This document shows positions 5,945 to 57,400 of a DNA stretch of 64,000 nt, piece after piece. Each line of letters starts with the position of its first letter. Positions within the stretch are counted from its first letter, which is position 1. The stretch lies in the NCBI GenBank assembly GCA_963790825.1, contig CAWBPM010000002.1:359159-423158 (forward strand), written 5' to 3'. The stretch is from Candidatus Levyibacteriota bacterium (GTDB lineage: Bacteria > Patescibacteriota > Microgenomatia > Levybacterales > UBA12049). Both the position numbers and the translations under genes were made by a program. Below the pieces are notes generated by a model. The model was not told where the DNA came from and made no database searches. It worked only from the letters and a program-made list of their open reading frames with translations.

Positions 5945-8900
5945 TCAAAAATATCTCTCCATTCTTTTTATATTTTCTTCATTAACAGTTACGGCGCTTA
6001 AGGAAAGTTCATGCTCAATCCCGGCAAAACTCTTTTCTATCAATTCATAGAAAGATTGTGCGCTTTTCTCCCAGGTAAACTGATAAGCCCACTTAATTGC
6101 TTCCTGAGAAAAATTCTTTCTCAGATTTTCATTAGTAATAAGTTCCAATATTTTGTTTGCAAATTCATCTGCGTCCCCGTAGGGAACGAGAAAACCGGTT
6201 GAGGGATTATTAATGGAATCTCTAAGTCCCGGCACATTTGATGCAACCGTCGGTGTCCCGCACGCATTTGCTTCAATGGTTGTAATACCCCAGCCTTCCA
6301 TAAAGGAAGGATTTACAAATACCCATGCTTTCTGGAAAAGTTTAATTTTCATATCTTCTTCTACTTTTCCGGTAAATAGAATTTTATTTTTCATACCGAG
6401 ATTCTCGGCGTATTTCTCAAGTTTTCTTCTCTCTTCTCCCTCTCCGGCAATAATAAATTCTACTTCGGGGATGCTCTCGGAAATTTTCTTGGCTGCTTTT
6501 ATCAAAATATGCAGACTTTTATAAGACTGAAGTCTTCCTAAATATAAAACAGACGGGATCATACTCTTTATTCCTGGTTTATACTTCCCGAGATCAACAC
6601 CGTTATAAACAATCATTGGCTCTTTTTTTGTCAGTTTATGTCTCAGTATCTCTTCTTTGGAAGACGGAGAAACAGTCACAACCTGAACACTTTTGTAAAC
6701 CAAAGGCATAAGTTTTGCTTCCAGGAATAACGCTAACCATGAGAATGGTGGTTTTAAGCTTTTTCTAAATACTTCCTGATGCACGTGGTGAATTAAGAGA
6801 AATTTAGGCTTAAATGAATATAAAGGCGAAAAAAATGGAATACCATTTTCAGAGTCGATGATAGCATCAAATTTTCCATGCAGTCGGAAAATATAATAGA
6901 GACATGCCCAAAGATAAACGGTATAAAATCCTCCACGCCTGATAATTTGTACACCGTCAATTATTTCATTTCTTGGTCCTTTTAAACTATTTCCGCAAAA
7001 GACAGTAACAGCATTGCCGTCTTTTACCCACCGTTTGGCAAGTTCCTGAATGTAGACTTCTGCTCCCCCTGCCCATTTATGCCGTGTGTCACGCCAATTT
7101 AAAATAAGTATTCGTAATTTATCTCTTTTAGTATATGTCTTTTTATATGTTTTAAATAAGCCAAAAAAATCGACCATATTGTTTTCAAATGTCTTTACCT
7201 GCACTGCAAAAAGATGAAGAGTTAATGTAATAGTCAGATAGAAAACCCAAATAAAACTCATAACGTAAACAAACGAGAAAACTGTTTGGTGGAAAAACGA
7301 GATAAGAACAATTTGCAAGACACCAATTAATAACGCTGCTCCGGCAAAACTATAATATCTCTTCGTTAAATAGTAATCACCATAAACTCGAGAGATGGTA
7401 AAGCATAACATCGCAAGAGACATCGGAAGAAGATAGGCAGTTGCGGCAATTGCTTTCTGTCCGAAAAGATAAGGAGCTGAGTAGTGACCTAAAATACCGA
7501 AAACCAAAACAGCCGGAAACGCTAATATAATAGCGCCGAGAATCGCTACCATAAGAATTTTTTTTGAATCTCTGTTGGTTCCCTCGTCTCTGCTTATCAA
7601 AGGAATAAGAAACGGAGAGACAAAAGAACCCATAAAAAATATTGTTTTCGCTACTAATGATATGAGTGAATATAATCCTGCTTCGTTTGGACTGAGATAA
7701 TGTTTTGCTAAAATTACATCAAGATTGAGAAGAATCACTGAGGATAAAGCTGCCATTGAGGAGTTAAGAAAGTATTTCTTGGGAAAATATTTTGCTTCTG
7801 CGTGTACTGTTTCTTTCGCATTTTTTCTACTTTTTACGATCATAATCCATCCTGCCAGAAAGGCGATAGAAACAGAAAAGGGTATGGCTGTATACGCCCA
7901 AGACTTAAGTCCCAGCAATACTAGTAGGAATGCAAAACCGAGCTTGAGAATAGGCTCGAATATGGCCAGAATGCCAAGGAGCACAAAGCTTAAACGTGAA
8001 GACAAAAATCCTCTATCTGTTGCATATGCGAATATTACTAAAAGAACAGGGGAGAATAGAAGAAATGGAAATAAACTTTCTGTTTTAAAGAAATGTAAAA
8101 GAGAAGGCGACAGTCCAACCCATAAAATAGTCAGGACTATGGAAATTAGCAATAATTTTCCTCTGGTAAATTTCCAGAAATCGAATGCTGTGTTGTTATT
8201 ATATTTTCCTATGAGGTAGCCGGTTTTATAACCAACTGTTGCACCAAACGCTCTTGGTATAACCGAGGTGAGAGAAAATAATCCAGTCATGAGACCGATT
8301 AAGCCAAAATCTTCCAGACTTAATACGCGACCTAAGTAAGCACTATACAAAAAATTGAATAAGTTACCGAGACCTAAAGCTCCCATGTAGAAGACACCCG
8401 CCAGGTAATTGCCGTGAAGCCTTATTTCTGTTTTAAACCGATTTTTAATTTTTGCAAAAAAAACTTTCCGGTTATTTGAGTCAATATAGATAATTTGTTC
8501 CATAATGACATCGGGTAAACTGTGTAATGATTTAAAACGAAGCCCATGAATTGTTTTCTCCCAATAGTGCGGTTTAAAAAGTAACTGATACAAAGCCATC
8601 CCGCTCGCAATGCTGATTAAAAGCCAGTAGAACGGGATTAAGAATGTGTATTTAATAAGTCCCCATTGTTTACGTTTGGCACATCCGATCATATAGCAAT
8701 AAAAAAACATAAAATTTCCAAAAACCAGCGAAAGTACAGCGAGGTACAATACGGGGGAGGGGTATAGAGATTGGATGAAGTGACCGGCAAAAGGGTAGAG
8801 AGTAAAATAGGCAATTGTTAATAGCCAAAGCAAGGGATTTAGCAAGATAAAGGCTAATTTCCCTCCAACTGTTAGTTGAAAAAACAAGACATGTATTCCT

Positions 8901-10678
8901 TTTTGACGGGCAAACCTAAAAGTATGACGCATATGAACCAGATAGGTTTGCATATAGCCTTTTATCCAGCGCGACCTTTGTCTCATCCAATTCGTCAGAT
9001 TACTATTTGCCTCTTCAAATGTTGTGGAATCGATAATCGCAGTCTTATACCCTTTTTTAAAAAGCCGTATACCCATGTCCGCATCCTCAGTGACGTTAAA
9101 TGCATCCCAACCCCTTAGCTTCTTCAGATCCTCTGTCCTAAAATGATTGCTGGTTCCGCCCAGCGGTAAACTGGTTTCAAGTGATTGTAACCCCGGAAGT
9201 GTTACGTCAAACCACAGCGAATACTCTGCGGTAAAGAAACGCGTGAGAAGATTTTGTTTAGGATTATAATAATTTAATTTTGCCTGCAGGCAAACAATGT
9301 CCCGCGGACATTTTTGAAAAGCCAAATAGGCTTTTTTTAACTGCATTGGATCCGGAGAATCTTCGGCGTCGTAAATAACCAGATACTCTCCCAAAGCTTC
9401 TGATAAACCGAAGTTACAAGCTTTCGGTTTTGTTTTCGGCATCGAATAAGGAACAACGACGACTCGAACGTAAGACGGAAGTATCATTGTTTCTACCTTT
9501 TCTATAGATTCTCTGTCATCTTCTTCCAGTAAAAGCAGTACGTCTAATTTGTCTTTCGGCCACTGCAATAGCTCTATAGCACGAAGAAATTGAGGAATAA
9601 CCTGCGCTTCTTTATAGAGCGGACAAAGAATAGAGTAAATAGGAAGAGTATCGTCATTGAGGCTATTAATTTCTTTCGTGTCAACTGAAATTTCTTTATC
9701 AAAAGTCAGACTTTTGCTTACAATAAAGAAATTAAATAGTGCATCGACCAAATAAACCAGACTTAAAATGGCAATTATTATTTTTAAAGTAGTAAGAAAT
9801 TCGAAGAACAAACCAAACAGGAAAAGAGTAAGGACAGCGAAGATAAATATCTTCTGTTTTAGCTGCAGCGTATAGATCGCGGAATCATCAAAATCTAACG
9901 TAGTATGGGTAATATACTTTCTTTTTTTATAACCCATTCCTGCACCTTTCATGGAAGAAGAAGTTGTGGGAGGAATTTGTTGGGGATATAATTTTCTTAA
10001 CCTGATATATAAAGCACTAAGCAGTATCTTGCTTATGCTAGCCAAAGAAGAAACAGGTGAGTTTATTGAAAAATTCAAAGGGAAAGCAATTTCATAATTA
10101 GTGATAATAAACCCTGCCTGTTTCGCCCGGTAAAAAAATTCCAGGTTAAATGTTTGGTCGGACAGAGGATTAAACTTAAGAGTATCGAGGACCTCTCTTG
10201 AGAATATTTTTATTCCTGATTCTGTGTTTATATCTATGCCAAAAAGTGTTTTACCAAGCAGAGAGGTAAGAGTACCCGCAAATGTTCTTTTAGGGTTATT
10301 TTTTTGTTCTTTTTTCGCTGAGGCAACGATTATATCCGCCTTGTCTAACTTTTTAATCATCTCCGGAATTGCCGCAAGCGGGTAGCGTAAATCCGGGTCT
10401 ATTAGAATAACTGCGGAACCGGCCGTATTTTTAAACCCCTCAAGCACATAACCTGCCTTACCTTTTAATCCCGTGTTTCTATAAACTGAAAAATTTTTGT
10501 TTTTCTGCATTTCTTGTAATAGCTGAAGCGAGTCGTCTATCGAATAGTCATCAATAAAAATAATTTCGTAGGGGTAATTTGTAGCCGTAAATGCTTTTTC
10601 AATACCACTTATGATTTCCCCAAGCAAATTTTGCTTATTATATATAGGTATAATTATACTGATCAATCTATCTCTCAT
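5945..10678 (-). CDS. 1577-aa four-module fusion: Dpm1/GtrB-like GT2, TM segment, processive GT2 (QxxRW), Wzx-like flippase, GT4
   Basis: 1) aa 1-225: IISIIIPIYNKQNLL ... IFIDDYSIDDS, polyprenyl-phosphate sugar synthase-like GT2. 2) TM helices. 3) aa ~340-600: KTKPKACNFG ... VIYDAEDSPD ... QRSRWIKGY, a CESA/PgaC/NodC-like processive GT2. 4) aa ~735-1150: multi-TM Wzx-like module (YLGRVLSLEDFGLIGLM). 5) aa ~1160-1577: GT4 (ILNWRDTRHKWAGGAEVY ... EGWGITTIEANACGTPTVAS). It is one uninterrupted ORF. Confidence 0.8.
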   Translation of the reverse strand: MRDRLISIIIPIYNKQNLLGEIISGIEKAFTATNYPYEIIFIDDYSIDDSLQLLQEMQKNKNFSVYRNTGLKGKAGYVLEGFKNTAGSAVILIDPDLRYPLAAIPEMIKKLDKADIIVASAKKEQKNNPKRTFAGTLTSLLGKTLFGIDINTESGIKIFSREVLDTLKFNPLSDQTFNLEFFYRAKQAGFIITNYEIAFPLNFSINSPVSSLASISKILLSALYIRLRKLYPQQIPPTTSSSMKGAGMGYKKRKYITHTTLDFDDSAIYTLQLKQKIFIFAVLTLFLFGLFFEFLTTLKIIIAILSLVYLVDALFNFFIVSKSLTFDKEISVDTKEINSLNDDTLPIYSILCPLYKEAQVIPQFLRAIELLQWPKDKLDVLLLLEEDDRESIEKVETMILPSYVRVVVVPYSMPKTKPKACNFGLSEALGEYLVIYDAEDSPDPMQLKKAYLAFQKCPRDIVCLQAKLNYYNPKQNLLTRFFTAEYSLWFDVTLPGLQSLETSLPLGGTSNHFRTEDLKKLRGWDAFNVTEDADMGIRLFKKGYKTAIIDSTTFEEANSNLTNWMRQRSRWIKGYMQTYLVHMRHTFRFARQKGIHVLFFQLTVGGKLAFILLNPLLWLLTIAYFTLYPFAGHFIQSLYPSPVLYLAVLSLVFGNFMFFYCYMIGCAKRKQWGLIKYTFLIPFYWLLISIASGMALYQLLFKPHYWEKTIHGLRFKSLHSLPDVIMEQIIYIDSNNRKVFFAKIKNRFKTEIRLHGNYLAGVFYMGALGLGNLFNFLYSAYLGRVLSLEDFGLIGLMTGLFSLTSVIPRAFGATVGYKTGYLIGKYNNNTAFDFWKFTRGKLLLISIVLTILWVGLSPSLLHFFKTESLFPFLLFSPVLLVIFAYATDRGFLSSRLSFVLLGILAIFEPILKLGFAFLLVLLGLKSWAYTAIPFSVSIAFLAGWIMIVKSRKNAKETVHAEAKYFPKKYFLNSSMAALSSVILLNLDVILAKHYLSPNEAGLYSLISLVAKTIFFMGSFVSPFLIPLISRDEGTNRDSKKILMVAILGAIILAFPAVLVFGILGHYSAPYLFGQKAIAATAYLLPMSLAMLCFTISRVYGDYYLTKRYYSFAGAALLIGVLQIVLISFFHQTVFSFVYVMSFIWVFYLTITLTLHLFAVQVKTFENNMVDFFGLFKTYKKTYTKRDKLRILILNWRDTRHKWAGGAEVYIQELAKRWVKDGNAVTVFCGNSLKGPRNEIIDGVQIIRRGGFYTVYLWACLYYIFRLHGKFDAIIDSENGIPFFSPLYSFKPKFLLIHHVHQEVFRKSLKPPFSWLALFLEAKLMPLVYKSVQVVTVSPSSKEEILRHKLTKKEPMIVYNGVDLGKYKPGIKSMIPSVLYLGRLQSYKSLHILIKAAKKISESIPEVEFIIAGEGEERRKLEKYAENLGMKNKILFTGKVEEDMKIKLFQKAWVFVNPSFMEGWGITTIEANACGTPTVASNVPGLRDSINNPSTGFLVPYGDADEFANKILELITNENLRKNFSQEAIKWAYQFTWEKSAQSFYELIEKSFAGIEHELSLSAVTVNEENIKRMERYF

Positions 10679-11371: not shown

Positions 11372-13588
11372 ATGAAGAAATTATCAATTGTTATACCAAC
11401 CTGGAACGAGGAAGGAAATATCCTACCTATTGTTCTACGGATTGATGCTGCAATGAAACGCATTAATACAATGTATGAACTGATTTTTGTGGACGATAAT
11501 TCCACTGATAATACACAAACTGCAATAAAAGACCTGAGTCGTTCTTACCCGATCTCTCTTTGGATAAAAAAAGGGAGGAAGGGGAAGGCGTTTTCTCTAC
11601 TTGAAGGTTTTTCCTACGCAAAATATAACTTTCTCTGCATGATAGATGCGGATTTGCAATATCCGCCTGAAGCTATTCCTGCAATGCTTAAGAAAATCGG
11701 AAGAAAAAATGATATCATAGTCGCGAATAGGAATGAAAAGAATATTAATCTCATCAGAAAACTTTTCAGTCATTCTTTTCGTCTTATTTTCGGAAGACTT
11801 ATCCATACCTTCGATTGCGATGTTCAATCCGGACTGAAAGTATTTAAAAAAGAAATCATAGAGCGAATTGATATAAACCCGACTTCCTGGACGTTCGATT
11901 TGGCACTACTGACAAAAGCCAGAAATGCCGGATACAGTATTGGTACTGTCGATATTATGTTTGATAAGCGGTTTTCCGGGAAAGCCAAAATCGGGCTGTT
12001 GAAAGCATCACTCGAGATAGGATTAAATGCGCTATTTTTAAAATTTGCTAAAAACGAAATTATTCCCTTTAGTCTCGCGACAAAAAAAAGAAAAGGGGAT
12101 GGGTTTCATTATAAAGGAAAGCCGTTCGTTCCGCATACTGACCTACCCATGAAACGAAGCGCAATTCAAAGGTTGACCTTGGGACAAATCCTCATTCTCT
12201 CTGCACTTTTGTGTTTCTTCATTATTGCTTTATTTCTAAACTGGCATCTGGTTTTGCTTCTTCTTATCTCGCTGGTAAGTTTCCTTTATTTTAGCGATCT
12301 TTTATTTAATTTTTTTCTGATTTATAGAAGTTTTTCAAAAACTCCCGAAATAAAAATAACTAAAAAAGCGATTCAAAAAATACCTGATAGTTTCTGGCCG
12401 ATATATACTGTTTTTTGTCCGTTATATAAAGAATGGTCCGTTGTCCCGCAATTTATCAAGGCCATGAGTGATCTGGATTACCCGAAAGAAAAGTTACAGG
12501 TAATGCTTCTTTTGGAAGAAGATGATAAAGAAACAATTGAAAAAGTAAAAGAGTTCAGCCTGCCGTTTTATTTCCAGGTTGTTATTATTCCCGATGCAAA
12601 GCCAAAAACCAAACCAAAAGCCATGAATTTCGGCATGAAATTTGCAAAAGGGGAGTTTATCGTTATTTATGATGCTGAAGATATACCGGAAAAAGATCAA
12701 TTAAAAAAGGCTGTTCTGGCTTTCCAGGAAGTAGGATTAAAAACTGTTTGCCTGCAGGCAAAATTAAATTTTTATAATCCCCATCAAAATCTTTTAACAC
12801 GTATTTTTACAGCCGAATACTCCCTATGGTTTGATTTGGTACTTACCGGTCTTCAATCAATTAATGCGCCGATTCCACTGGGCGGTACTTCTAATCACTT
12901 TCGGGCCGGAGTTCTGGAAAAAATAAAGGGTTGGGATGCGTTCAATGTAACGGAAGATGCGGACCTCGGTATGCGACTGGTTAAAGAAGGATATAGAACG
13001 GGTATTATAGATTCGACTACGTATGAAGAGGCAAACAGTGATTATATAAATTGGTTCAATCAACGAACACGCTGGGTCAAAGGTTACATCCAAACTTACT
13101 TTGTTCACATGAGAAATCTCAGGGAGTTTAAAATGTCTCTCAGAAACCCCGATGCGATTACGTTTCAACTTGTTATCGGGGGGAAAATTTTATCCATGTT
13201 TATAAATCCGTTCATGTGGACGGTGACTATTAGTTATTTCGTCTTTCGCCCGATTATCGGTACATTTATCGATTCTTTCTTTCCCGGTCCCTTATTGTAT
13301 ATTGCTATGTTCTCGTTAATTTTCGGAAACTTTCTTTATTACTATTATTATGTGATCGGCTGTGCAAAAAGGAATTATTATGACATTATCAAATATCTCT
13401 TCCTGATTCCTTTCTATTGGTTGGCAATGAGTGTGGCAGCCTGGATAGCAACTTATAAATTTATTCACGAACCGTATTATTGGTCAAAAACAGTCCATGG
13501 CTTACATCTTCAGGATAGCAACAGTTTCGCTAAAAAGAAAGTGCCCCTTTTCCGCTTGAGTTTTCTACCTATTTTTGATAAAGAGTAA
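11372..13588 (+). CDS. 738-aa dual GT2 protein (Dpm1-like GT2, TM segment, processive QxxRW GT2, TM segment)
   Basis: LSIVIPTWNEEGNI ... FVDDNSTDNT, then KTKPKAMNFG ... VIYDAEDIPE ... QRTRWVKGY. It is a close paralogue of aa 1-720 of the 1577-aa protein. Confidence 0.8.
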   Translation: MKKLSIVIPTWNEEGNILPIVLRIDAAMKRINTMYELIFVDDNSTDNTQTAIKDLSRSYPISLWIKKGRKGKAFSLLEGFSYAKYNFLCMIDADLQYPPEAIPAMLKKIGRKNDIIVANRNEKNINLIRKLFSHSFRLIFGRLIHTFDCDVQSGLKVFKKEIIERIDINPTSWTFDLALLTKARNAGYSIGTVDIMFDKRFSGKAKIGLLKASLEIGLNALFLKFAKNEIIPFSLATKKRKGDGFHYKGKPFVPHTDLPMKRSAIQRLTLGQILILSALLCFFIIALFLNWHLVLLLLISLVSFLYFSDLLFNFFLIYRSFSKTPEIKITKKAIQKIPDSFWPIYTVFCPLYKEWSVVPQFIKAMSDLDYPKEKLQVMLLLEEDDKETIEKVKEFSLPFYFQVVIIPDAKPKTKPKAMNFGMKFAKGEFIVIYDAEDIPEKDQLKKAVLAFQEVGLKTVCLQAKLNFYNPHQNLLTRIFTAEYSLWFDLVLTGLQSINAPIPLGGTSNHFRAGVLEKIKGWDAFNVTEDADLGMRLVKEGYRTGIIDSTTYEEANSDYINWFNQRTRWVKGYIQTYFVHMRNLREFKMSLRNPDAITFQLVIGGKILSMFINPFMWTVTISYFVFRPIIGTFIDSFFPGPLLYIAMFSLIFGNFLYYYYYVIGCAKRNYYDIIKYLFLIPFYWLAMSVAAWIATYKFIHEPYYWSKTVHGLHLQDSNSFAKKKVPLFRLSFLPIFDKE

Positions 13589-22806: not shown

Positions 22807-23985
22807 TTAACTACTGATTTCAATTAGAGGTAGCTGTTGGCGATTCTTATCCTGCAAAATTACCGTTTTATATAGCTTCTCAAGCCCGTCTACGGTCGCA
22901 TCGATAGAAAACAATTCTGCTTTTTTATGAGCTTCCAGAGAAAGCTGCATCATTTCCTGGCTATTATACAAAAGGTTAATGATCGCTCTGCTAAACTCTT
23001 TTTGATTATTTCGAACCAAGATACCGTTTTTTCCATTTTCTATAATTCCCTCAAACGCAAGGTCTTTTCGAGCAATAATCGGAAGAGATGAAGCCATTGC
23101 TTCAAGTATTACCATTCCTTGTGTCTCTGTTCGAGAAGCAAAAAGAAAAAGCGCTGCGTCCGCATAAACAAGGGCAATAAACTTCTGCTCGATTGAACCG
23201 GTAAAGTATATTCTTTGTTCTACCAATAACGATCTGGCGAGATCTTGTAATTTTTCACGCTCCGGACCGTCCCCTACGATGACAAGGACCGTGTCGGGTC
23301 GTTTTTGCGACACAAGCGCAAATGAACGGATTAAAAAATCGACCGATTTCTCTTTTCCCAATCTTCCTACATACAGAAGGATTTTATCCGTACTTTTCAG
23401 TTTCAACCTTTTTCTTAAAAAACCTTTTTTTACATTTTGGAATTTCTCCAGATCAAGTCCGTTCGGAATAACCGCGATTGGTTTCTGAACGCCGTAAGAA
23501 ATAAGTTCATCTTTTACTTTCATAGTAGGTGCTATCAGAGAATCGGACATATTGCAGAAAACCCGGCTTGCTACTTCAGTCATTTTTGGCGGAATTAATT
23601 TACCATTGAGAAAGTAGTGTGTGTATTTATTCCACAATGTATGGTAAGTACAGACGAAAGGTACTTTTTTTAGAAGCGCGACTTCCCAGCCAAGAAAAGT
23701 AACCGGTCCCCCCGAATGACCATGGATAATATCAAAATCGATTTTTGATAACTGAATAAGCGATTTGCCGGGCAAATACATAGCCAGCCGCAGCTCCGGC
23801 TGCTTCGGTACTTTTACCGAAGTAAGACGGAATACATTTTTTTTATCCTTAAATCCCGGATAAGACGGCGCGATGATATAAACAGTATGCCCTCTGGCTT
23901 CCAGCTCCCTGGCACATGTATCAACAGATATGGCAACCCCATCAATGCGCGGTAAATAGCTGTCCGTGAAAAATCCGATTTTCAT
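22807..23985 (-). CDS. GT4 glycosyltransferase
   Basis: MKIGFFTDSYLPRIDGVAISV at the N-terminus, and a C-terminal GT-B domain (ETQGMVILEAMASSLPIIA). Confidence 0.8.
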   Translation of the reverse strand: MKIGFFTDSYLPRIDGVAISVDTCARELEARGHTVYIIAPSYPGFKDKKNVFRLTSVKVPKQPELRLAMYLPGKSLIQLSKIDFDIIHGHSGGPVTFLGWEVALLKKVPFVCTYHTLWNKYTHYFLNGKLIPPKMTEVASRVFCNMSDSLIAPTMKVKDELISYGVQKPIAVIPNGLDLEKFQNVKKGFLRKRLKLKSTDKILLYVGRLGKEKSVDFLIRSFALVSQKRPDTVLVIVGDGPEREKLQDLARSLLVEQRIYFTGSIEQKFIALVYADAALFLFASRTETQGMVILEAMASSLPIIARKDLAFEGIIENGKNGILVRNNQKEFSRAIINLLYNSQEMMQLSLEAHKKAELFSIDATVDGLEKLYKTVILQDKNRQQLPLIEISS

Positions 23986-26588: not shown

Positions 26589-27614
26589 ATGATAAGAGGA
26601 ATGAATAGAAGATTTTTAGAAATAGATTTACTGCGCGGCCTGGCAATATTTTCAATTATTCTTATTCACACAAGCTACTATTTCTTAAGCGATAAACTCG
26701 CCTTATTTTTGTGGAATATAAATCAATACTCTGTTCCGGTATTTCTTTTTTGTTCAGGTTTTATTTTTTTCAATCGATATCAAAGTATCGATGGTTTTTC
26801 TTTTTTCGAATATGTATATAAGCGTTTTTGCAGACTTCTTATTCCGTATTATATTTTTTTGGTCTTTTTTATTCCGTTAGTAGCAGTTATTCAACCCGGG
26901 AAAGTCACTTTTACTTACATTTGGCAAAGCATTGTATTAATTGGTGGAGTTGATATTAATTGGTTGGTTTTATTATTTTTATGTCTCAGTCTTCTGATGC
27001 CTTTTATTCTGTACCTTTGGCAAAAACAACGAATTCTTTTTTATCTTTTTACTTTTATTTCTCTTCTTACTTCCTTTCTTTTTATTTTCTGGCATTTTCC
27101 CTTTTCTTATAAATGGATTATGTGGCTTACCTGGTCGGCTATCTTGGTTTTTAGTTTATTTTTTGTTAAAAATAGCTTAAAAAAATGGTTTTATCCAGTT
27201 AGTTTAATAACTTCATCAGCGATCTTTTTGATATTGTATTCGTTAGAAAATTCGCTTCATCATTCACTTTCCTTCTACGATAACAAATATCCAGCAAATT
27301 TTTATTATCTCTCGTATGGTATTGCTGCAATTACTCTGCTTTTTTATCTAGCCAAATATAATTTCTTCAAAACACCAGCCAATAAATTGTTAAATTTTCT
27401 AAGTATTTATTCTTACCAAATTTTTTTCATCCATTATTTTCTGCTTACTTTTTTTGTAAATCTGTTACCGAGATTTAATTTCAACTGGCTGACTTTTTTT
27501 CTGACAGTTTTTATATCCAGTCTTTTACTGCAAAAGTTACTTATTGTAACCCGTCCTTTATCTTTCCTGGAAAATTTATGCAAAAAAAATCAACACATCG
27601 AAAAGAACGATTAG
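26589..27614 (+). CDS. Acyltransferase family 3 (membrane O-acyltransferase)
   Basis: RRFLEIDLLRGLAIFSIILIHT, with about 10 TM helices. Confidence 0.7.
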   Translation: MIRGMNRRFLEIDLLRGLAIFSIILIHTSYYFLSDKLALFLWNINQYSVPVFLFCSGFIFFNRYQSIDGFSFFEYVYKRFCRLLIPYYIFLVFFIPLVAVIQPGKVTFTYIWQSIVLIGGVDINWLVLLFLCLSLLMPFILYLWQKQRILFYLFTFISLLTSFLFIFWHFPFSYKWIMWLTWSAILVFSLFFVKNSLKKWFYPVSLITSSAIFLILYSLENSLHHSLSFYDNKYPANFYYLSYGIAAITLLFYLAKYNFFKTPANKLLNFLSIYSYQIFFIHYFLLTFFVNLLPRFNFNWLTFFLTVFISSLLLQKLLIVTRPLSFLENLCKKNQHIEKND

Positions 27615-27638: not shown

Positions 27639-28298
27639 TTACATGATTTCAATCTTTGTTTTTGTTTGTTTTTTATTTTTATAGCGCATAAAAAGAAAGG
27701 CTACGAAGAAAAACAGAAGCGGAATACCGAAGAACAGGAAATAAGTGCGGTGAGCGTGGAGGAGGATAGCTGTTTTGGGACCCAGTCTTCGACCTATGTC
27801 AAGGTATAGCGGTATCCAAAAAATAATTGAAATAAATGTGGAGGCAATAAATGTCTTATACGATACTTTAGAAATTCCCGAGAAAACAGTGATTGGTATG
27901 CGAAACCCCGGAATATGTCTGCCAAAAATAATCACCCATAGACCATATTTTTGAAATTTTTGTTCTACTGCGTCTAGTTTTTTTTGATCCAAATGAATAT
28001 ATTTCCCAATGCTTGTGACAATAAACGGTCCCCACCGACGTGAAATAAAATAAAGTATTGATGAACCCATGAGTACGGCAATTACCAGACTGATAAAGGC
28101 TGTGGGGTAAGAAATTGTTCCTCGGGAAACTTGATAGCCGGTATAAGCAATTACGATATCTCCGGGAACAGGCAGAGGAATTCCAGCTTCTTCGATCATG
28201 AGAAGAAACAGAGGACCCAGAAGCACTTGGTAGTGAAGAAATGAAACAAGGACGTCTTGCAACCAATCATTGTCGAAGAGAATGTTTAACCTAGTCAT
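27639..28298 (-). CDS. DedA/SNARE-associated family membrane protein
   Basis: LFLLMIEEAGIPLPVPGDIVIAYTGY is the DedA motif. Confidence 0.75.
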   Translation of the reverse strand: MTRLNILFDNDWLQDVLVSFLHYQVLLGPLFLLMIEEAGIPLPVPGDIVIAYTGYQVSRGTISYPTAFISLVIAVLMGSSILYFISRRWGPFIVTSIGKYIHLDQKKLDAVEQKFQKYGLWVIIFGRHIPGFRIPITVFSGISKVSYKTFIASTFISIIFWIPLYLDIGRRLGPKTAILLHAHRTYFLFFGIPLLFFFVAFLFMRYKNKKQTKTKIEIM

Positions 28299-28385: not shown

Positions 28386-31028
28386 TTATTGTTCTTTTAC
28401 CGTATGAACAATAATCGGATCTACGACATAATAATTATTATCAACAATATTTTCTTTGATCACTTTATAGGTTGGCATACCTTTTAGCAAACTAAAATCG
28501 ACATTTCGAAAATCGTCATGGAAGAAAATTACTGCTTTGATTCTCGGCATTGATGGAATATCTTTTTTAAGCGTATCGGCAAACCACTGTCCTTTATCCC
28601 CGCCGATACTCGTAGATGAAGTTTCAGTGACCATAATCGGCTTATTAATCTTAATTAACTCCTGATATGCCGCTTGAGAAAGATCTTTAAAGATCGTCCA
28701 TTTTGTTAAAAAGCCGCTTTCGCCCCAGTTAAATCCGCTGTAACCAATCCAATCTACATATTTGTCTCCCGGATAGTAACTAAGCATAGAATCTGAACTT
28801 CCGTATGCATCGGTATTATTCGGAGACCATACCCAAATAACATTATCTGCGTGTTCCTGGGCAAAGATATTATACACATGGATCCACATTTGTTTGTAGT
28901 CTTCGGGCGTATTGCCAAAAGCATTACCCCATGGATACCAGTCTCCATTCATTTCTTGGGCGAACCGGAGAAAGAACGGTTTTTTATATGCAGCAGCTTC
29001 CCGAGCCCAGCTTCTGATAAAGTCATCATACTTACCGCTGGTAATTACTTTTGGATAAAATTCTTCTTGATTGATAATACCTTGGGCTGCCTTCTTCGCG
29101 TCCCATGGTTCCCAGGTGATAACCGGAATAACATTTTGCTCGGCAATCTGATCAACGAAGGGCTTATCAAATCCTGCCTGATTACCCCAATCCTCATAGT
29201 ACATTGCCAGACTTGGCTTCTCTCCCGGGATTATGCTAAGTTTCGGATTATCCGGGTGTTGATTGAGCTGAGGCTGGTAATATCCATAATATGCACCCGT
29301 ACTCGGCACCATTAATTCTTGGGCTATCACTTTTCCCTGCGCCGCATTAACCAAAAGATACATATTATCCATCGTGACTACGCTTCTGAAACTCGGGGTT
29401 CTTGAGATAATTATGCCAAAGACGATAATCATTGCGGGAATAAGTACTCGTTTTATGGGAAAATTAAAATTTCCTAAATGTGCAGTTACGTAGAGCCTTT
29501 CGTCCAATTTTTTTCCATAGTTATCCCGAAGTATTAAGAAAAATCCAAGAAACAGGAAGCTGACATCAAAAGATGCCCAAAGGTAATTAATATAGGTTGC
29601 AAGCGGATTACCGCTCGAGGCTTTCGTTATACTATAGATAAGTCCCGCTAACAACGTAGCCATAACCACAAACTGCAGCTTATAAACCTGAAAAATATTT
29701 TCTTTTTCATACTTTTTAATGGTAACAATAAAAGCCAGGTTTTTCTTAAGGATACTGGAAAGAAAGGCTGAAACAAAGATAGGAAAGGAAATAAGATCCA
29801 ATACCAGACTCTTTAATGGCTCCTTAAAAAGTAGTAAATATAAAATAAAATTAAACATAAAAAGCGGAGCATAAATAAAGGTTAAAAATCCCAGAGTATT
29901 TGCCCGAATCAGTGATACGCCAAAAAATAAGAAGGGGATAGGCGCTAGCATAAGAATAAAATCACGCACTCCGATTAGGTAATATGTAGCAGAAAGAAGA
30001 TAATGAAACTTTTGTTTATAAGTTAACGGACCGAACAATAATTTCCCCAAATAAGTAAATGACGCATCAAATGTGCCTTTTGCCCATCTACGCTGTTGGT
30101 TAAAGTACGCTTTGAGTGTAGAAGGCGCGACTCCAAGAGCTAATACTTTTGCGATAAATACTCCTTTTTTCCCGGATAAATGCAAATTAAGAGAAGTTGA
30201 GTAGTCCTCGGTAATAAAGCGCGTATCCATACCATCAACTGAGTTAAGCGCTTCTCTACGAATGGCAAAATTGGTTCCACAAAGAAAAAGTGCATTATCA
30301 TGCGCCTTTGCATTACAAATATAATCAAAGAAGTATATTTGATGAGCCGCTGCCGCTTTGGCAACCCAAGTCATCTCATTTTTATAGCGCTGAGGAGTCT
30401 GCACAAAGTCAACCGAATCATCAACAAATGGTTTTGTAATTTCTGTTAAAAGTTCCGGCTTTGCAGAGAAGTCAGCATCAAAAACTATGTCAATGGTATT
30501 GTGAGGATCGTAGGTTATTAATTGAGAAATCCCATTATTAATATTTCCGGCTTTGAATCCGTCACTTGAATTACGAGTTGAATAATAAACATTTAAGTCT
30601 ACACAGAGTTGAATGATCTCGTTCCAATTATCTTTTTTCGCAGCATATCCGTCATTAAGCACAACTATTCGCGGCTCTTTGTCAGGATGAACTACAGCGA
30701 TATATTGCTTCACTGTCTCTTTCGCAGCTAATATTGTTTCCCGTACTAATTCTACCGGTTCACCACACACACAAATGAGCAGGTTTAATTCCAAATTTTT
30801 ATTATAATTAATATCGCTATAGGTCTTATATTTTCGTGGCCACAGTGAATAAACCATTCCAAAAAAGTGAAATATAGTGTGAAGCTCTGCCAGAAACAAA
30901 AGGAGACTAAATATAACGAGCGCCGGAGAGAAATTGACCAATTGTATACGCACAAATAAGTATGCCAGGATTAATAATAATCCGTACAATAAAAGGAAGC
31001 GAATAAAAAGTTTTCTCAGGATAAACAT
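28386..31028 (-). CDS. 880-aa fusion of a cellulose-synthase-like processive GT2 and a C-terminal GH26-like glycoside hydrolase
   Basis: N-terminal TMs. DAD, TED (FITEDYSTSL) and QQRRWAKG are the BcsA-type motifs. Further TMs follow. The C-terminal domain carries RFAQEMNGDWYPWG (GH26 RFxxEMN acid/base region), IWVWSPN and IMVTETS (nucleophile region). Confidence 0.75.
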   Translation of the reverse strand: MFILRKLFIRFLLLYGLLLILAYLFVRIQLVNFSPALVIFSLLLFLAELHTIFHFFGMVYSLWPRKYKTYSDINYNKNLELNLLICVCGEPVELVRETILAAKETVKQYIAVVHPDKEPRIVVLNDGYAAKKDNWNEIIQLCVDLNVYYSTRNSSDGFKAGNINNGISQLITYDPHNTIDIVFDADFSAKPELLTEITKPFVDDSVDFVQTPQRYKNEMTWVAKAAAAHQIYFFDYICNAKAHDNALFLCGTNFAIRREALNSVDGMDTRFITEDYSTSLNLHLSGKKGVFIAKVLALGVAPSTLKAYFNQQRRWAKGTFDASFTYLGKLLFGPLTYKQKFHYLLSATYYLIGVRDFILMLAPIPFLFFGVSLIRANTLGFLTFIYAPLFMFNFILYLLLFKEPLKSLVLDLISFPIFVSAFLSSILKKNLAFIVTIKKYEKENIFQVYKLQFVVMATLLAGLIYSITKASSGNPLATYINYLWASFDVSFLFLGFFLILRDNYGKKLDERLYVTAHLGNFNFPIKRVLIPAMIIVFGIIISRTPSFRSVVTMDNMYLLVNAAQGKVIAQELMVPSTGAYYGYYQPQLNQHPDNPKLSIIPGEKPSLAMYYEDWGNQAGFDKPFVDQIAEQNVIPVITWEPWDAKKAAQGIINQEEFYPKVITSGKYDDFIRSWAREAAAYKKPFFLRFAQEMNGDWYPWGNAFGNTPEDYKQMWIHVYNIFAQEHADNVIWVWSPNNTDAYGSSDSMLSYYPGDKYVDWIGYSGFNWGESGFLTKWTIFKDLSQAAYQELIKINKPIMVTETSSTSIGGDKGQWFADTLKKDIPSMPRIKAVIFFHDDFRNVDFSLLKGMPTYKVIKENIVDNNYYVVDPIIVHTVKEQ

Positions 31029-31039
31029 AACTATAGGAT

Positions 31040-31068
31040 ATTATAGGGGAAATTTTAGTCTTTGTCAA
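31040..31068 (-). promoter_or_regulatory. Consensus sigma70-type promoter (TTGACA-17-TATAAT) for the 880-aa gene, giving a near-leaderless transcript
   Basis: Minus strand reads cTTGACAaagactaaaatttccccTATAATatcctatagttATG. The -10 element ends 11 nt before the start codon. Confidence 0.55.
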
Positions 31069-31235
31069 GCTATAGGACTACTCTATCTGAAGTAAATCGA
31101 GGCTATTTTAATCTGATTATGGGTCTACGTGATAAATTGAGCCTAAACGAGCCTGAATAGAGACTTAACCACGGCTGGGAAGCTGCCCGTCTTATGCCTT
31201 ATTTACCCGGGAAACAGGTCGTAATACAGAGGTAG

Positions 31236-33400: not shown

Positions 33401-34520
33401 TTTTTCGAAAAATAGTCATGAATAAGTCACGATACATATTGGAATCTTAAGGAAGAAGATTCTATGCCAAGTGATTTTAAACGAGTAAGACATTTACGAC
33501 CAAAATACTCACAAAAGAGCTATCATATACTGATGAAAATGCTCCAGAATTCATTAGCAGTTGAAGTATCCGATGTAGCTGCTTTTCGCCTTCACGTGAT
33601 TAATCACTACTACAAGTATGGACTGCGTCCAACCCTTGCTGCATTCAAAATAAAGAAGAGCAGCTTATACAACTGGAGAAATGCTTATGAACACAACGGA
33701 AAAAGGACAATCAGTTTAGTGCCACACGGAACTAGACCTCTCCATGTGCGAAAGATGGAGACAGACTGGAGAATAATTGAGTTCATTAGAGAGATGAGGC
33801 ATGAGCATGGGAATATTGGTAAAAGTATGCTCAAGCCCTTTGTTGATGCGTATGCCAAAGAGCTGGGTATTAAGACCTTGGCAGAAAGTACTATTGGGAA
33901 AGTACTTAAAAGACGTCACTTAACATTTGAGAAGAAAGTCTACCCACAGAAACAAAAAAACAAGTTCAAAAAGCTAAGAGTGAGAAAGTCTCCTAAGGTA
34001 GTTTCTCCTGGATTTATTGAGATGGATTCAGTAGTTGTCTATATCAATTTTGAGAAACATTTGTTTATGTGTGTGATTGATATTTACACAAAATTTGCCT
34101 TAGTTGTATATGTACCGGATCTCTCCTCAGTAACAGCAAGAGAGGTTTTTAAGCAGTTCCAGTGCAATAATCCAACACCGATTCATACAATCCAAACAGA
34201 TAATGGATCAGAGTTTCTCAAATCATTCCATGAGTATATAGTTGAACAGAAAATTAAACATCAATTTATCTATCCCAGAATGCCAAAGATTAATAGTTAC
34301 ATTGAGAGATTCAATCGGACAATCCAGGAGGAATTCATTTTAAGAAATGACGAGATTTACTATGACTCAGAAGCATTTGCAAAAAAGCTCACAAAGTATT
34401 TATACTGGTATAACTATAAGAGGCCACATGCTTCGCTTAAATATATGTCGCCTATGTCCTTTATACAAGCCAAGATTCCAATAAGTGCGTGACGCATACA
34501 AGTCATGCATTATTTTTTCA
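33401..34520 (+). mobile_element. Putative IS element (rve/IS481-like) with degenerate terminal inverted repeats
   Basis: It carries a single DDE transposase ORF. The candidate imperfect inverted repeats at 33401-33435 and 34485-34520 share GAAAAATA ... CATGA ... GTCACG. The boundaries are approximate. Confidence 0.4.
33464..34492 (+). CDS. DDE transposase, integrase core (rve) domain, IS481-like
   Basis: HTIQTDNGSEF ... YNYKRPHASLKYMSPMSF is the rve DDE region. An N-terminal HTH is present. Confidence 0.75.
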   Translation: MPSDFKRVRHLRPKYSQKSYHILMKMLQNSLAVEVSDVAAFRLHVINHYYKYGLRPTLAAFKIKKSSLYNWRNAYEHNGKRTISLVPHGTRPLHVRKMETDWRIIEFIREMRHEHGNIGKSMLKPFVDAYAKELGIKTLAESTIGKVLKRRHLTFEKKVYPQKQKNKFKKLRVRKSPKVVSPGFIEMDSVVVYINFEKHLFMCVIDIYTKFALVVYVPDLSSVTAREVFKQFQCNNPTPIHTIQTDNGSEFLKSFHEYIVEQKIKHQFIYPRMPKINSYIERFNRTIQEEFILRNDEIYYDSEAFAKKLTKYLYWYNYKRPHASLKYMSPMSFIQAKIPISA

Positions 34521-49705: not shown

Positions 49706-50134
49706 TTACGCAGTATTCTCAACCACGCGGGACAAAATGCCAAGAATCTGGGTTTTTTCTTTTTCCGTTAACAGATCAAGGAATTTATTCAGCTTCTCAT
49801 TTTTCCTTTTCAATTCTTCAGTCATGAGCATTTCTCCTCTATCCGTTAAAGTTACTTTTACGACGCGTCGATCCTTAGGATCATGGATACGTTTGACAAG
49901 TTTCATTAAGACTAATTTATCTAACAATACGGTAGCTGTGGGCATCGAGATTCGGAAATTATCTGCCACATCGCTCATTTGTACGACTTTATGTTTTTTG
50001 AGTATAATCAGTGATTCAAGTTGCAAAAAAGTTAAGTGCGCGACAAGCGAATGGTTTTGCATTTGCTCTCGTATAATGCGACTGAAGTGGAATAATTTAT
50101 CTATAAGTTGCGTGTCTATTTCGCTCTGCTTCAT
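49706..50134 (-). CDS. MarR family transcriptional regulator
   Basis: Winged HTH (LTFLQLESLIILKKHKVVQMSDVADNFRISMPTATVLLDKLV). It is first in the efflux operon. Confidence 0.8.
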   Translation of the reverse strand: MKQSEIDTQLIDKLFHFSRIIREQMQNHSLVAHLTFLQLESLIILKKHKVVQMSDVADNFRISMPTATVLLDKLVLMKLVKRIHDPKDRRVVKVTLTDRGEMLMTEELKRKNEKLNKFLDLLTEKEKTQILGILSRVVENTA

Positions 50135-50244
50135 ATTAATATTGCTTACTATTAGTAGTACTAACTATTTGTGATTATAAGTTACTATTTGTCATTTGTC
50201 AAGTACTAAGGTGAGTAACTATATTATAAGTTCAAAATAGTATA

Positions 50245-54450: not shown

Positions 54451-57400
54451 ATGACAGAAAAATCATTGATTCATAGATTAGTAGAAGATCATTCAAGAAA
54501 TCGGGCTTTTAAAAGAATAGCAGCAGAGAAGGGAAATGCGCTGGCTATTGCAGAAATAAATAAAGATACACGTGCGTTCCATAAAAAGAGAGAAGAACGC
54601 AAAATAATTCTTCCATTAAATAACTCTCTCCCGGAAACTCCCGGTACAGAACCAATGCCTGCGTTACAAATTGTACCAACCATAACTGACAGTTCTGAAT
54701 TCATGCTAGATGTAATAAGCGATACACCTATATCATTAAAAGAGCTTTTTTTTCAGACAATATCGGAACCGGATCAATCAGGAAATACAGATCTATTATC
54801 ACCGGTAGCAGAACCAAGATTAGAAAGAGCGTTGGCATCATTCGGTTATGACAGTAATGATTTTTTGCAGCGAATAAAAATTAAACCAGAGGTACCAACT
54901 GAAACAGGACCAAGATTAGAAAGACCACTGACATCGTTCAATCCTGATGGCAAAGATTTTTTGAAGAGAGTAAAAATTGGAGCAGAACCAACAGAAACTG
55001 AAACCAAACAACCGGCAAGTACTCAAACACCAGAGTTAGTTGAGGCACCCGTAATAAAACCTATTGAAATGCCTAGAGGCCGCAGGAAAAGATTTGCCGG
55101 TCGAGTTGCCGTAGCTGCACTTACTTTAGCTGGCGTACTCGGAGCAATGCCTGGCCGTACCAGTGCAGACCAAGCATCCACGACGCCCAGAGCAATAACA
55201 TCAGATTCTTCCTTGGTTATTCCGACTCCTGATATAACTAATCCCATAACCGTCACAACTGTTTTAAGTGGTACCAGAGTAACATCTTCAATTACAGGCA
55301 CTGAGAATATTACCTCAACTAATCCTTTGACGGTAACCGACGCAGCACCTATAACCAGTACGGAAAATATCTCCCAAACTAATCCATTAACTAATACTGA
55401 TGGGATAAGCGATACAAATCCGCTGACTTTAACAGACACCAGTCCAATAAGTCCTACCGGCACTGCGATTGCAACTCCTGAACCGAGTGGTACACCAACA
55501 CCTGATGACCCATCACCAAGTACGACGAGCAGTCCTACTCCGAGCTCTACCGGCACACCGAATCCTTATATTAATCCGGATACTGTTTTTCCGCCAAGTA
55601 TTTATTCTGGCCCACGTGTAGATTACACTATTAATCAACCTGGACCACACGCAATCCTTAAGGAAAGAGTGCCCGGGGATGGATCGACAGATTACGCTTC
55701 AGACACAAAAGATGGATTAGATACAGTATCTGCTATGCTTAACCCAAAAACAAATCAACCTGATCATATGTATGTTTGCCAAGTATATACAGATTATAAT
55801 GGGAAAAATGCCATAACAACGAAATTTGTTGAAAGCAGTTTACTTACTCAGAGTCAACTTAATACCATAACATTACCGGGTAACGGAATAGATCTCGCGT
55901 ACAATGCCGATAAGCTAAACTTAATACCTACCGGTGGGATTAAAACAAACACCTATGCATTTGAAACATTGCCAGGTAATGAATGTGCGCCTAAAGCTCC
56001 GCCACCTCCTTGTAAGACTCCGACGGGAACACCAACGGCAATACCATCTGAAACAGCAACAAATACTCCGTCTGCGACTGCTTCCGAAACTTTAACAGCA
56101 ACGCCATTACCTACTGAGACACCTCAAAATACTCCGACGGGAACACCAACGGCAATACCATCTGAAACAGCAACAAATACAGTAACACCCGTACCGACAG
56201 ACACCTTGACACCGACAGCAACCGCGACTAGAACCGCAACTCCTTATTATCCGCCTCCTCCGCCATATATTCCTCCACCTCCTTATTATCCGCCTCCTCC
56301 GCCATATATTCCTCCACCGACTCTTACCTTTACACCGGTACCGACAGCTACTGCGACGTTTACATTCACGCCGACACCTTCGGCAACTGAAACGTCAACA
56401 AATACGCCAACTATAACTCCAGTTGCAACTAATTCCGAAACTCCGACAGCGACCAAAACCCCTCGCCCACGACCCAGTGCAACTCCCCATCTGGTTAAAC
56501 AAACATGTGAAACAATCGTAAACAAAGTGAAAAACATGAAAGAATTAACAAAGAAGCAAAAAACTAAACTTGAGGAACAGCTTGAAAAAAAATACCATTT
56601 AATATGTAATATAATTCCGACTCCAAGCAGAACTCCGCGACCTACGCATACTCGAACCGCAACAGCTACCCGAACTGAAACTCCAAAACCACCACATACA
56701 CCGACTCCTACTGATACACTTACGCCAACTGCAACAAAAACAGCTACCCGAACTGCAACCAGTACCAGAACTGCTACAGCAACATTTACCTTTACACCCA
56801 GACCAACAGAGACTCATACGCCGACAGCAACACCAACTGAAACTCCAAAACCACCACATACACCGACTCCTACTGATACACTTACGCCAACTGCAACAAA
56901 AACAGCTACCCGAACTGCAACCAGTACCAGAACTGCTACAGCAACATTTACCTTTACACCCAGACCAACAGAGACTCATACGCCGACAGCTACCCCAAGT
57001 GAAACACCAAAACCAACCTCTACCCGAACAGCGACTGCTACAGCCACGTTCACTGCTACCCTAACACCTACTCCTACTGATACACTTACGCCAACTGCAA
57101 CGCGAACATCAACAAGAACACCTACTTTTACTGCTACTCTCACACCGAGACCGACCCGAACTGAAACTCCGGTTCCGCCAACTCCGACGAGAACTGCGAC
57201 GATGGTTCCTCCAAAAACAGGCGCGTTTGCAGAATCAGGAATTTTGTCAGATTTACTCTGGAGTCAACCAGTCAAAAAAGATAAAAACTTTAATAAAATC
57301 TGCTACTACGACTTTTCGAAAAATAACCAGCACGTTAGATACCGAAGCGCTGAAGGATTCATAAAAGGAGTGGCAGCCACTCACATATTGACCGACCCAA

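Follow-up and report, generated by a model that had tools for sequence, protein, structure and literature searches.

A 64,000-nucleotide stretch of DNA from Candidatus Levyibacteriota bacterium (contig CAWBPM010000002.1, positions 359,159 to 423,158), called the window below and numbered from its first letter, was analyzed. The gene in question occupies 28386–31028, including the stop codon, and encodes a GT2 synthase fused to a GH26 domain. It is a single uninterrupted open reading frame (ORF) of 880 codons that begins with ATG and is free of internal stops. The first-pass annotation had reported one 880-amino-acid ORF in this interval, with D, D, TED, and QRRW motifs; the ORF and every quoted motif were found, and the strand needed correction. 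The gene lies on the minus strand, as do all of its features given below; a plus-strand reading was ruled out, since that frame is full of stops. The GT2 motifs were LNDG (residues 124–127, with D126), FDADF (183–187, with D184 and D186), TED (273–275), and QQRRW (311–315). Further BcsA-type motifs were FKAGN (158–162), LFLCGTN (247–253), and FIVTIK (433–438), the last being the FxVTxK gating loop. The C-terminal part carried the GH26 motifs RFAQEMNGDWYPWG (688–701), IWVWSPN (731–737), and VTETS (800–804), as had been claimed.

In the Pfam search, both halves scored above the gathering cut-offs. GT2 families matched residues 85–368 (PF13632, E 7e-21), and Glyco_hydro_26 (PF02156) matched residues 669–803 with 58.9 bits against a cut-off of 20.2. 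GH113 and GH5 had been named as alternatives to GH26; the profile search gave GH26, and no GH5 or GH113 family matched the 880-amino-acid protein at E ≤ 0.1. A PilZ domain had no Pfam match in the protein, the C-terminus of which consists of a seventh transmembrane (TM) helix and the GH26 domain.

The intactness of the gene was investigated with 46 full-length homologues, which were 46–65% identical to the query and co-linear with the ORF. In the resulting alignment of 47 sequences, D126, D184, D186, T273-E274-D275, Q311, Q312, R314, and W315 of the GT2 half were invariant, and so were T638-W639-E640-P641, E692, and E802 of the GH26 half. Because these motif residues are invariant, both halves are under purifying selection with their catalytic residues intact. 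The annotated start is supported by the conservation of M1 in at least 90% of the aligned sequences. A frameshift between the halves, which would have undone the first-pass reading, was not found; it was rejected, together with a chimera, since the homologues are co-linear over the full length. An AlphaFold2 (AF2) model built on the 47 homologues had a mean pLDDT of 88 and a pTM of 0.61. In this protein, a processive BcsA-like GT2 and a GH26 domain are genuinely joined in one covalent chain.

The N-terminal half was compared with known synthases. The best NCBIfam model was the cellulose synthase catalytic subunit CelA (E 1.6e-49); the models of PgaC (1.2e-9), NodC, and MdoH scored much lower. 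A PgaC-type synthase of poly-N-acetylglucosamine (PNAG) was rejected, since the profile scores favored CelA. When PDB sequences were searched with phmmer, residues 6–496 matched residues 62–568 of Rhodobacter BcsA (4hg6) with E 3e-35. Foldseek matched the N-terminal half of the model to BcsA 4p00 (E 8e-25, TMt 0.59). All features of a processive BcsA-like GT2 were present: D, DxD, TED, QxxRW, a TM channel, the FxVTxK loop, and the BcsA fold. A cytoplasmic GT-A catalytic domain with its interface helix was assigned to residues 80–335 (30024–30791) by Pfam, NCBIfam, phmmer, alignment, Foldseek, and motifs. The translocation-channel region was assigned to residues 351–504 (29517–29978) by the phmmer alignment to BcsA, hydropathy, AF2, and motifs.

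The C-terminal half was compared in the same databases. With phmmer against PDB, residues 600–845 matched CtLic26A, the GH26 lichenase domain of C. thermocellum CelH, with E 1e-37; GH26 mannanases and β-1,3-xylanases reached only E 1e-6 to 1e-8. Every C-terminal PDB match with E < 1e-6 was a GH26 protein. In Foldseek, CtLic26A was matched with E 5e-19 and TMt 0.85–0.88, and mannanases with TMt of about 0.57. Query E692 aligned with catalytic E109 of CtLic26A and is the predicted acid/base (codon GAA, 28953–28955); E802 aligned with catalytic E222 and is the predicted nucleophile (codon GAA, 28623–28625). By profile score, modeled fold, and catalytic residues, the C-terminal domain is a member of GH26. 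The whole predicted extracytoplasmic (β/α)8 domain, which is CtLic26A-like, spans residues 567–878 (28395–29330) according to Pfam, phmmer, a search with the GH26 domain, and Foldseek. It sits in the CtLic26A-like branch, and a putative lichenase specificity is suggested by overall similarity. Lichenase (EC 3.2.1.73) acts on mixed-linkage glucan, where it cuts the β-1,4 bonds that come after a β-1,3 linkage.

The membrane topology was predicted from hydropathy and AF2 helices. TM helices were located at residues 2–28 (TM1), 38–62 (TM2), 351–369 (TM3), 379–400 (TM4), 450–469 (TM5), and 475–504 (TM6). The N-terminal hairpin of TM1 and TM2 (residues 2–62, 30843–31025) is equivalent to TM3-4 of BcsA, as judged by hydropathy, AF2, and the BcsA match from residue 6. 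The cytoplasmic GT domain lies between TM2 and TM3 and is followed by the interface helix bearing QRRW. Between TM4 and TM5, an amphipathic helix (IF3, 404–426) precedes the FxVTxK loop. The BcsA match ended at query residue 496, which corresponds to BcsA 568 at the end of BcsA TM8; TM6, ending at about residue 504, is the TM8 equivalent. In BcsA structures, TM8 brings the chain back to the cytoplasm, where the PilZ domain is located. Beyond TM6, the protein has a loop rich in lysine and arginine (six K/R in 501–527), an additional helix TM7 (residues 525–542, 29403–29456), a short helical linker, and the GH26 barrel, with about 25 residues between TM7 and GH26. TM7 is absent from BcsA and is predicted to cross the membrane on the basis of hydropathy, AF2, and the linkers of homologues.

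Since one extra helix, an odd number, follows the equivalent of BcsA TM8, the GH26 domain should be outside the cell. Exactly one hydrophobic linker segment was present in 40 of the 47 aligned homologues. Around this helix, most homologues had 3–6 K/R before it and 0–2 in the 15 residues after it, a bias across TM7 that agrees with the positive-inside rule. In a split version from another member of the Levyibacteriota (L008), the halves are separate overlapping ORFs, and the TM7-type helix forms the N-terminal anchor of the GH26 protein. The predicted extracytoplasmic position of GH26, a question that had been left to topology prediction, is thus well supported by sequence and model.

The distribution of the architecture was investigated next to that of its parts. 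The full architecture was common to about 59 protein clusters (90% identity), and the named fusion clusters were mostly from Patescibacteria (Blackburnbacteria, Woesebacteria, Microgenomates, and Saccharimonadales). The GH26 domain alone, searched against 1.84 billion representatives, had 1030 relatives at E < 1e-30, mostly stand-alone proteins of 300–500 amino acids. Several other GT2+GH26 fusion families of 830–920 amino acids were found among these relatives, and Bacteroidota versions of about 1260 amino acids carried a third TIM-barrel domain. A set of 80 loci from GTDB species representatives was scored by stop-to-stop frame, since tblastn joins adjacent genes. True fusions were found in 15 of the 80 loci (Patescibacteria, Solirubrobacterales/Thermoleophilia, Coriobacteriia, and Chloroflexota). 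Adjacent same-strand GT2→GH26 genes were found in 25 (Omnitrophota, Elusimicrobiota, Sumerlaeota, Bipolaricaulota, Coriobacteriia, deltaproteobacteria, and Kocuria sp. CPCC 205315). The remaining loci were linked otherwise (9), had GH26 only (30), or had GT2 only (1). By reading frame, Kocuria had a clean GT2→GH26 pair that was not fused; Micromonospora was not fused either, and its stop-to-stop frames overlapped by about 1.9 kb.

The Omnitrophota chromosome CP070655.1 (locus L038, 1547–7113) contained an operon of TPR (195 amino acids), TPR (603), GT2 (509), GH26 (310), and PilZ (157) genes; the TPR and GT2 genes overlap by 4 nt, and so do the GT2 and GH26 genes. By analogy, this is a bcs-like layout with GH26 in the position of BcsZ. 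Similar TPR-GT2-GH26 layouts were also seen in other loci of Omnitrophota, Elusimicrobiota, Sumerlaeota, and Planctomycetota. ORF clustering gave no third partner family common to the 80 loci. The largest other real cluster was TPR (11 loci), which occurred in diderm lineages; the others were Wzx-like proteins near GH26-only loci and spurious antisense ORFs of high GC content. The first-pass annotation had set the covalent fusion against the usual pairing with a separately encoded hydrolase. The fusion is not exceptional, since it recurs in many lineages and alternates with separate GT2→GH26 pairs. The recurrence of fused and split forms across many phyla is the strongest evidence that GH26 acts on the product of its own synthase. 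No description of a GT2-GH26 fusion or operon was found in the searchable literature, nor any account of GH26 in the candidate phyla radiation.

The gene probably encodes a self-contained, minimal synthase-dependent exopolysaccharide machine, in which a tethered hydrolase processes its own product. The host would be a monoderm Patescibacteria (Levybacteria-like) cell. In this cell, the cytoplasmic BcsA-like GT2 would polymerize a nucleotide-sugar into a β-linked chain, and, as the fold and motifs suggest, the chain would be threaded through the channel formed by the six BcsA-type TM helices of the same protein. TM7 and the linker would hold the retaining GH26, with its intact catalytic residues, on the outer face near the channel exit. 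There, GH26 would cleave the emerging polymer, which may free chains, determine their length, or remove those that have stalled. In other systems, these roles are assigned to the separately encoded BcsZ, CcsZ, and PssZ. Free GH26 paralogues, which occur in relatives, might act further out. A consensus σ70-type promoter would drive transcription, and the resulting mRNA would have a leader of some 3–5 nt and no Shine-Dalgarno sequence. Control would probably be transcriptional, because neither a PilZ domain nor a BcsB-like or TPR partner was detected. The trimming of the protein's own product, proposed at first pass, was kept as the most economical function, as GT2-GH26 coupling recurs in both fused and adjacent form.

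Several points weigh against this interpretation. The GT2 half missed the CelA equivalog cut-off by far (TIGR03030, 168.6 vs 699.1 bits), so the protein is not a bona fide cellulose synthase; it also missed the PRK11498 equivalog cut-off (95.2 bits vs 992). Besides the low score, two other features of a true BcsA were lacking: the PilZ domain had no match, and no BcsB-like partner gene was detected in the window, which was searched without a dedicated screen for PilZ and TPR families. The pTM of the AF2 model was only 0.61, and residues 505–556 had low pLDDT. Because of the low pTM and the low-confidence linker, the placement of GH26 over the channel exit is left as a prediction. The family of the hydrolase is a further point, as GH26, like GH17, is a retaining clan GH-A (β/α)8 family, and such an enzyme might transfer rather than hydrolyze.

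The remaining points concern CE4 deacetylases. GT2 cores 54–63% identical to the window core occurred with CE4 deacetylases, fused or adjoining, and these cores were as close to the window core as the GH26-fused cores of other Patescibacteria. In two metagenomic proteins (P0066 and P0070), the GT2 was fused C-terminally to a TM-anchored CE4 with intact TFDDG, HSWSH, and RPPMG motifs, and the best PDB matches of this CE4 were peptidoglycan N-acetylglucosamine deacetylases (E 6e-42). Three GT2-only proteins (P0062, P0065, and P0077) had a CE4 gene directly upstream; another GT2-only protein (P0069) had no nearby CE4 gene. In a neighbor-joining tree of GT2 cores, the CE4-associated groups were nested among the GH26-fused ones. 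The outer tailoring domain, GH26 or CE4, thus seems to be swapped within one tight GT2 family. The closest relatives, P0002 at locus L087 (65% identity) and P0005 (64%), have CBM96-CE4, then a free TM-anchored GH26, and then the fusion in one locus (L087 1–5649). At the P0004 locus (L086, 1847–5652), the fusion is preceded by a free GH26. In these relatives, the free GH26 paralogues are TM-anchored and have long linkers rich in Pro, Ser, and Thr. A CE4 gene and a second GH26 were absent within the 64-kb window. The genes downstream of the L087 fusion encode phosphoglycerate mutase and enolase, as in the window; because L087 shares these genes but adds CE4 and a free GH26, the window locus looks like a reduced derivative, and it may be a remnant. 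The CE4 partners agree poorly with a plain neutral glucan and suggest an acetylated or amino-sugar polymer.

P0066, P0070, and loci L082, L083, and L084 comprise GT2-TM-CE4 fusions and CE4→GT2 pairs with a GT2 core in the family of the window protein. To our knowledge, CBM96 is known only as an alginate binder and is uninformative on the polymer here.

The identity of the polymer was considered with both sets of partners. The first-pass annotation had suggested a β-mannan or a mixed-linkage glucan. A β-mannan synthase was rejected as the leading idea, and a β-mannan product is disfavored, since the similarity of the GH26 domain to mannanases (E 1e-6 to 1e-8, TM about 0.57) was much weaker than that to CtLic26A (E 1e-37, TM 0.87). 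Mixed-linkage glucan was kept as one option but not as the sole candidate, in view of the CE4 fused to or near the same GT2 family. The lichenase-like GH26 suggests a β-glucan. Also favoring glucan are the cellulose-synthase-type GT2, the neutral substrates of known GH26 enzymes, the two GH16 genes and GDSL esterase gene that adjoin one CE4-type locus (L084), and the Acyl_transf_3 O-acyltransferase gene located downstream in the window. The substrates of all known GH26 enzymes are neutral β-mannans, xylans, or glucans (PMC10470212). As Listeria Pss illustrates, synthase-dependent exopolysaccharides include a polymer of N-acetylmannosamine (PMC13492145).

A β-glucan with β-1,3 and β-1,4 linkages, possibly O-acetylated, is tentatively put forward, with a chance a little short of even. 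An acetylated or N-acetylhexosamine-based β-glycan, which would also be deacetylated in the relatives, is a possible alternative. Between the two, the β-glucan appears somewhat likelier than a polymer based on N-acetylhexosamine, and β-mannan is unlikely. A more far-reaching proposal, which is rather doubtful at present, is that GT2-GH26(-CE4) represents a synthase-dependent pathway that has so far gone undescribed and that makes not a plain glucan but a β-glycan in acetylated or partly deacetylated form. Examples would be a chitosan-like or N-acetylhexosamine-containing polymer, or an O-acetylated mixed-linkage glucan. If this were true, this Lic26A-like clade of GH26 would have a specificity new to the family, and the fused form would be a one-gene surface-glycan machine for the envelope or attachment matrix of Patescibacteria with small genomes.

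Other functions of the GH26 domain were weighed against the trimming of the protein's own product. It is unlikely that GH26 is mainly a transglycosylase, which would cut the nascent chain and re-ligate it into cyclic or branched glycans or to the wall. Apart from the retaining mechanism named above, the close spacing of TM7 and GH26, with about 25 residues of linker, is consistent with this function, and the free GH26 paralogues in related loci could supply a purely hydrolytic one. A GT2 with a TM-tethered outer glycoside hydrolase (GH) also has a precedent in the NdvB 'Orphan', whose periplasmic GH17 was proposed to act as a cyclizing transglycosylase on the nascent chain (PMC10237404). The closest characterized enzyme, CtLic26A, is however a hydrolase, and the sequence does not separate hydrolysis from transglycosylation. 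We know of no GH26 transglycosylase dedicated to biosynthesis.

The domain might instead attack a foreign polysaccharide, for nutrient scavenging or on a host surface glycan, so that the fusion would be a mere membrane anchor unrelated to the GT2 product. Patescibacteria rely on external carbon or hosts, and most of the 1030 Lic26A-like GH26 representatives stand alone. The GT2→GH26 linkage, however, recurs across phyla as fusions and overlapping pairs, which is hard to explain without a shared substrate and makes this function very unlikely. That GH26 is a catalytically dead, carbohydrate-binding remnant and the protein only a synthase is improbable in the extreme: E692, E802, TWEP, EMNGxWYPW, and ETS were invariant or nearly so in the 47 sequences. 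A precedent for such a loss is Ciona CesA, in which GT2 is joined to a GH6 without a key catalytic Asp (PMC10334666). The preferred function of GH26 is still the processing of the polymer made by its own synthase.

The promoter and the translation start of the gene were also analyzed. The minus strand reads TCCTATAG-C-TTGACA-17 nt-TATAAT-A-TCCTATAG-TT-ATG, a σ70-type promoter with 12 of 12 consensus positions. The −35 hexamer TTGACA is at 31063–31068, and a near-identical site was present in L087; the −10 hexamer TATAAT, after a 17-nt spacer, is at 31040–31045 and ends 11 nt before the ATG (31026–31028). This arrangement, noted at first pass, was confirmed by the promoter scan as a perfect consensus. 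The window contained 7 promoters of the form TTGACA-N17-TATAAT with at most one mismatch, where 1.09 were expected, and none of 100 shuffles reached 7. A looser scan was not enriched (47 observed vs 49.5 expected), and weight was therefore given only to near-perfect matches. No motif resembling a Shine-Dalgarno (SD) sequence was found in the 11 nt (ATCCTATAGTT) between the −10 hexamer and the ATG. Transcription would start about 6–8 nt downstream of the −10 hexamer, and the leader would then be about 3–5 nt. Since the 11-nt gap implies such a start, no room is left for a Shine-Dalgarno sequence.

The orthologue at L087, the closest relative, has TCCTATAG-TTGACT-17-TATAAT-8 nt-ATG, although a GH26 gene lies upstream there. 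The promoter is therefore conserved, with a near-identical site. At L086, the gene is operonic instead. By repeat count, the window holds just two copies of the 8-nt direct repeat TCCTATAG, spaced 39 nt apart on either side of the promoter. The upstream copy (31070–31077), which is conserved in L087, abuts the −35 hexamer; the downstream copy (31031–31038) covers the predicted transcription start, between the −10 hexamer and the ATG. The two copies may be an operator or regulator-binding site. No riboswitch or leader RNA was found at the gene with Rfam and ARAGORN, which yielded only four tRNAs in the window.

The layout was compared with that of the other genes of the window. Only 2 of 50 long ORFs had an SD-like motif. 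A TATAAT-like −10 hexamer ended 4–13 nt before the start codon in 14 of 49 ORFs, with a peak at 6–8 nt. Examples are the ORF starts at 23985, 28298, 31844, 38224, and 40672. These values suggest that leaderless or near-leaderless mRNAs are widespread in this Patescibacteria genome. A near-leaderless layout, with the −10 hexamer within about 6–12 nt of the start codon and no SD, was present at the fusion gene. The near-leaderless mRNA claimed at first pass is plausible given the missing SD and the L087 layout, but it is not special to this gene, being rather a genome-wide habit. No account of leaderless translation in Patescibacteria was found in the searchable literature. The second perfect TTGACA-17-TATAAT of the window (50174–50202, minus strand) precedes a 142-amino-acid ORF at 49706–50134 (minus strand), with a 39-nt leader that has no SD and contains a near-palindrome. 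We tentatively take the product of this ORF to be HTH/MarR-like. A longer plus-strand ORF at 49737–50174 is probably spurious.

The neighboring genes are not exopolysaccharide genes. Downstream of the fusion gene are genes for DedA/VTT, Acyl_transf_3, a hypothetical protein, phosphoglycerate mutase, and enolase; upstream are a UDG-family gene, a β-lactamase-like gene, and an insertion sequence (IS) with an rve integrase. The DedA/VTT gene (27639–28298, minus strand) has its own −10 box, and no terminator was detected in the 87-nt gap between it and the fusion gene. The fusion gene seems to be transcribed alone or, at most, together with DedA. The Acyl_transf_3 membrane O-acyltransferase gene (26589–27614, plus strand) lies 0.8 kb downstream of the gene. 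Its product could acetylate the polymer, which would agree with the presence of CE4 partners in relatives. Synteny with DedA, Acyl_transf_3, or UDG was absent in the eight related loci compared. The IS-type transposase with rve integrase core domains (33464–34492, plus strand) lies 2.4 kb upstream and may have to do with how the CE4 and GH26 genes found upstream in relatives were lost or rearranged here.

Further features of the window were also recorded. Its TypA protein shares 69–73% identity with proteins labeled Patescibacteria or Candidatus Levybacteria. A large glycan-synthesis region encodes a 1577-amino-acid protein (5945–10678, minus strand), which combines two GT2 domains with a GT4 domain, and a 738-amino-acid double-GT2 protein (11372–13588, plus strand). 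A further GT4 gene stands apart at 22807–23985. A 1076-amino-acid ORF without a Pfam match (54451–57681, plus strand) is located where the composition of the window is most skewed (GC 0.45, GC skew −0.29, and AT skew +0.23). Patescibacteria are generally thought to be very limited in energy metabolism. An ORF at 61232–62536 (plus strand) matched the NiFe-hydrogenase large subunit (PF00374, E 2e-24).

Synthase-dependent systems (cellulose, PNAG, Pel, alginate, and Pss) each pair a synthase with a hydrolase or lyase, the role of which is debated. The architecture described here fixes a 1:1 stoichiometry and a predicted site of action at the channel exit, and the fusion offers a compact model in which to ask what a synthase needs a hydrolase for. 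The module is widespread, mostly in uncultivated lineages (Patescibacteria, Omnitrophota, Elusimicrobiota, Solirubrobacterales, and Coriobacteriia), and its split form occurs in the culturable Kocuria. An 880-amino-acid enzyme with a consensus promoter, in a lineage with little biosynthetic capacity, suggests an important surface polymer. Identification of the polymer could widen the substrate range of GH26.

The fusion resembles BcsA-BcsZ, CcsA/CcsZ, and PssC/PssZ, in which a BcsA-fold GT2 is genetically coupled to an extracytoplasmic GH. It differs in the family of the hydrolase, which is GH8 in BcsZ, GH5 in CcsZ, and GH126 in PssZ, whereas GH26 is used here and is covalently fused through an extra TM helix. 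BcsA has a PilZ domain and the partner BcsB; the fusion protein lacks such a domain, and a BcsB-like gene was not detected in the window. The Omnitrophota relative resembles bcs further, with TPR and PilZ genes in its operon. CtLic26A (PDB 2bv9, 2cip, and 2vi0) is the closest solved relative of residues 600–845, and the two share both catalytic Glu and the ITWEPW, E-NGDWYPW, and INKPI..E motifs. CtLic26A is a secreted, degradative cellulosomal enzyme, whereas the GH26 of the window is predicted to be membrane-tethered to a synthase.

The closest relatives (L087 and P0005) follow the logic of PgaC/PgaB and Pel, in which a synthase, a CE4, and a hydrolase make partly deacetylated amino-sugar exopolysaccharides. 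The window differs from these systems in that its GT2 is CelA-like and not PgaC-like, its hydrolase is GH26 and not GH153 or GH166, and it has no CE4. The pseudomonad NdvB 'Orphan', a GH17-TM-GT2 cyclic β-1,3-glucan synthase, also joins GT2 to an outer retaining clan GH-A TIM barrel, but its GH is N-terminal, belongs to GH17, and works in a diderm host (PMC10237404). Tunicate CesA has the same order as the fusion, with an N-terminal GT2 and a C-terminal GH (GH6), and a free GH6-1 paralogue that may be compared with the free GH26 (PMC10334666). It differs in being eukaryotic, in making cellulose, and in its apparently dead GH6; the catalytic residues of the window GH26 are intact. Covalent GT2-GH proteins are thus already known from NdvB (GH17-GT2) and tunicate CesA (GT2-GH6), and the new combination is GT2-GH26.

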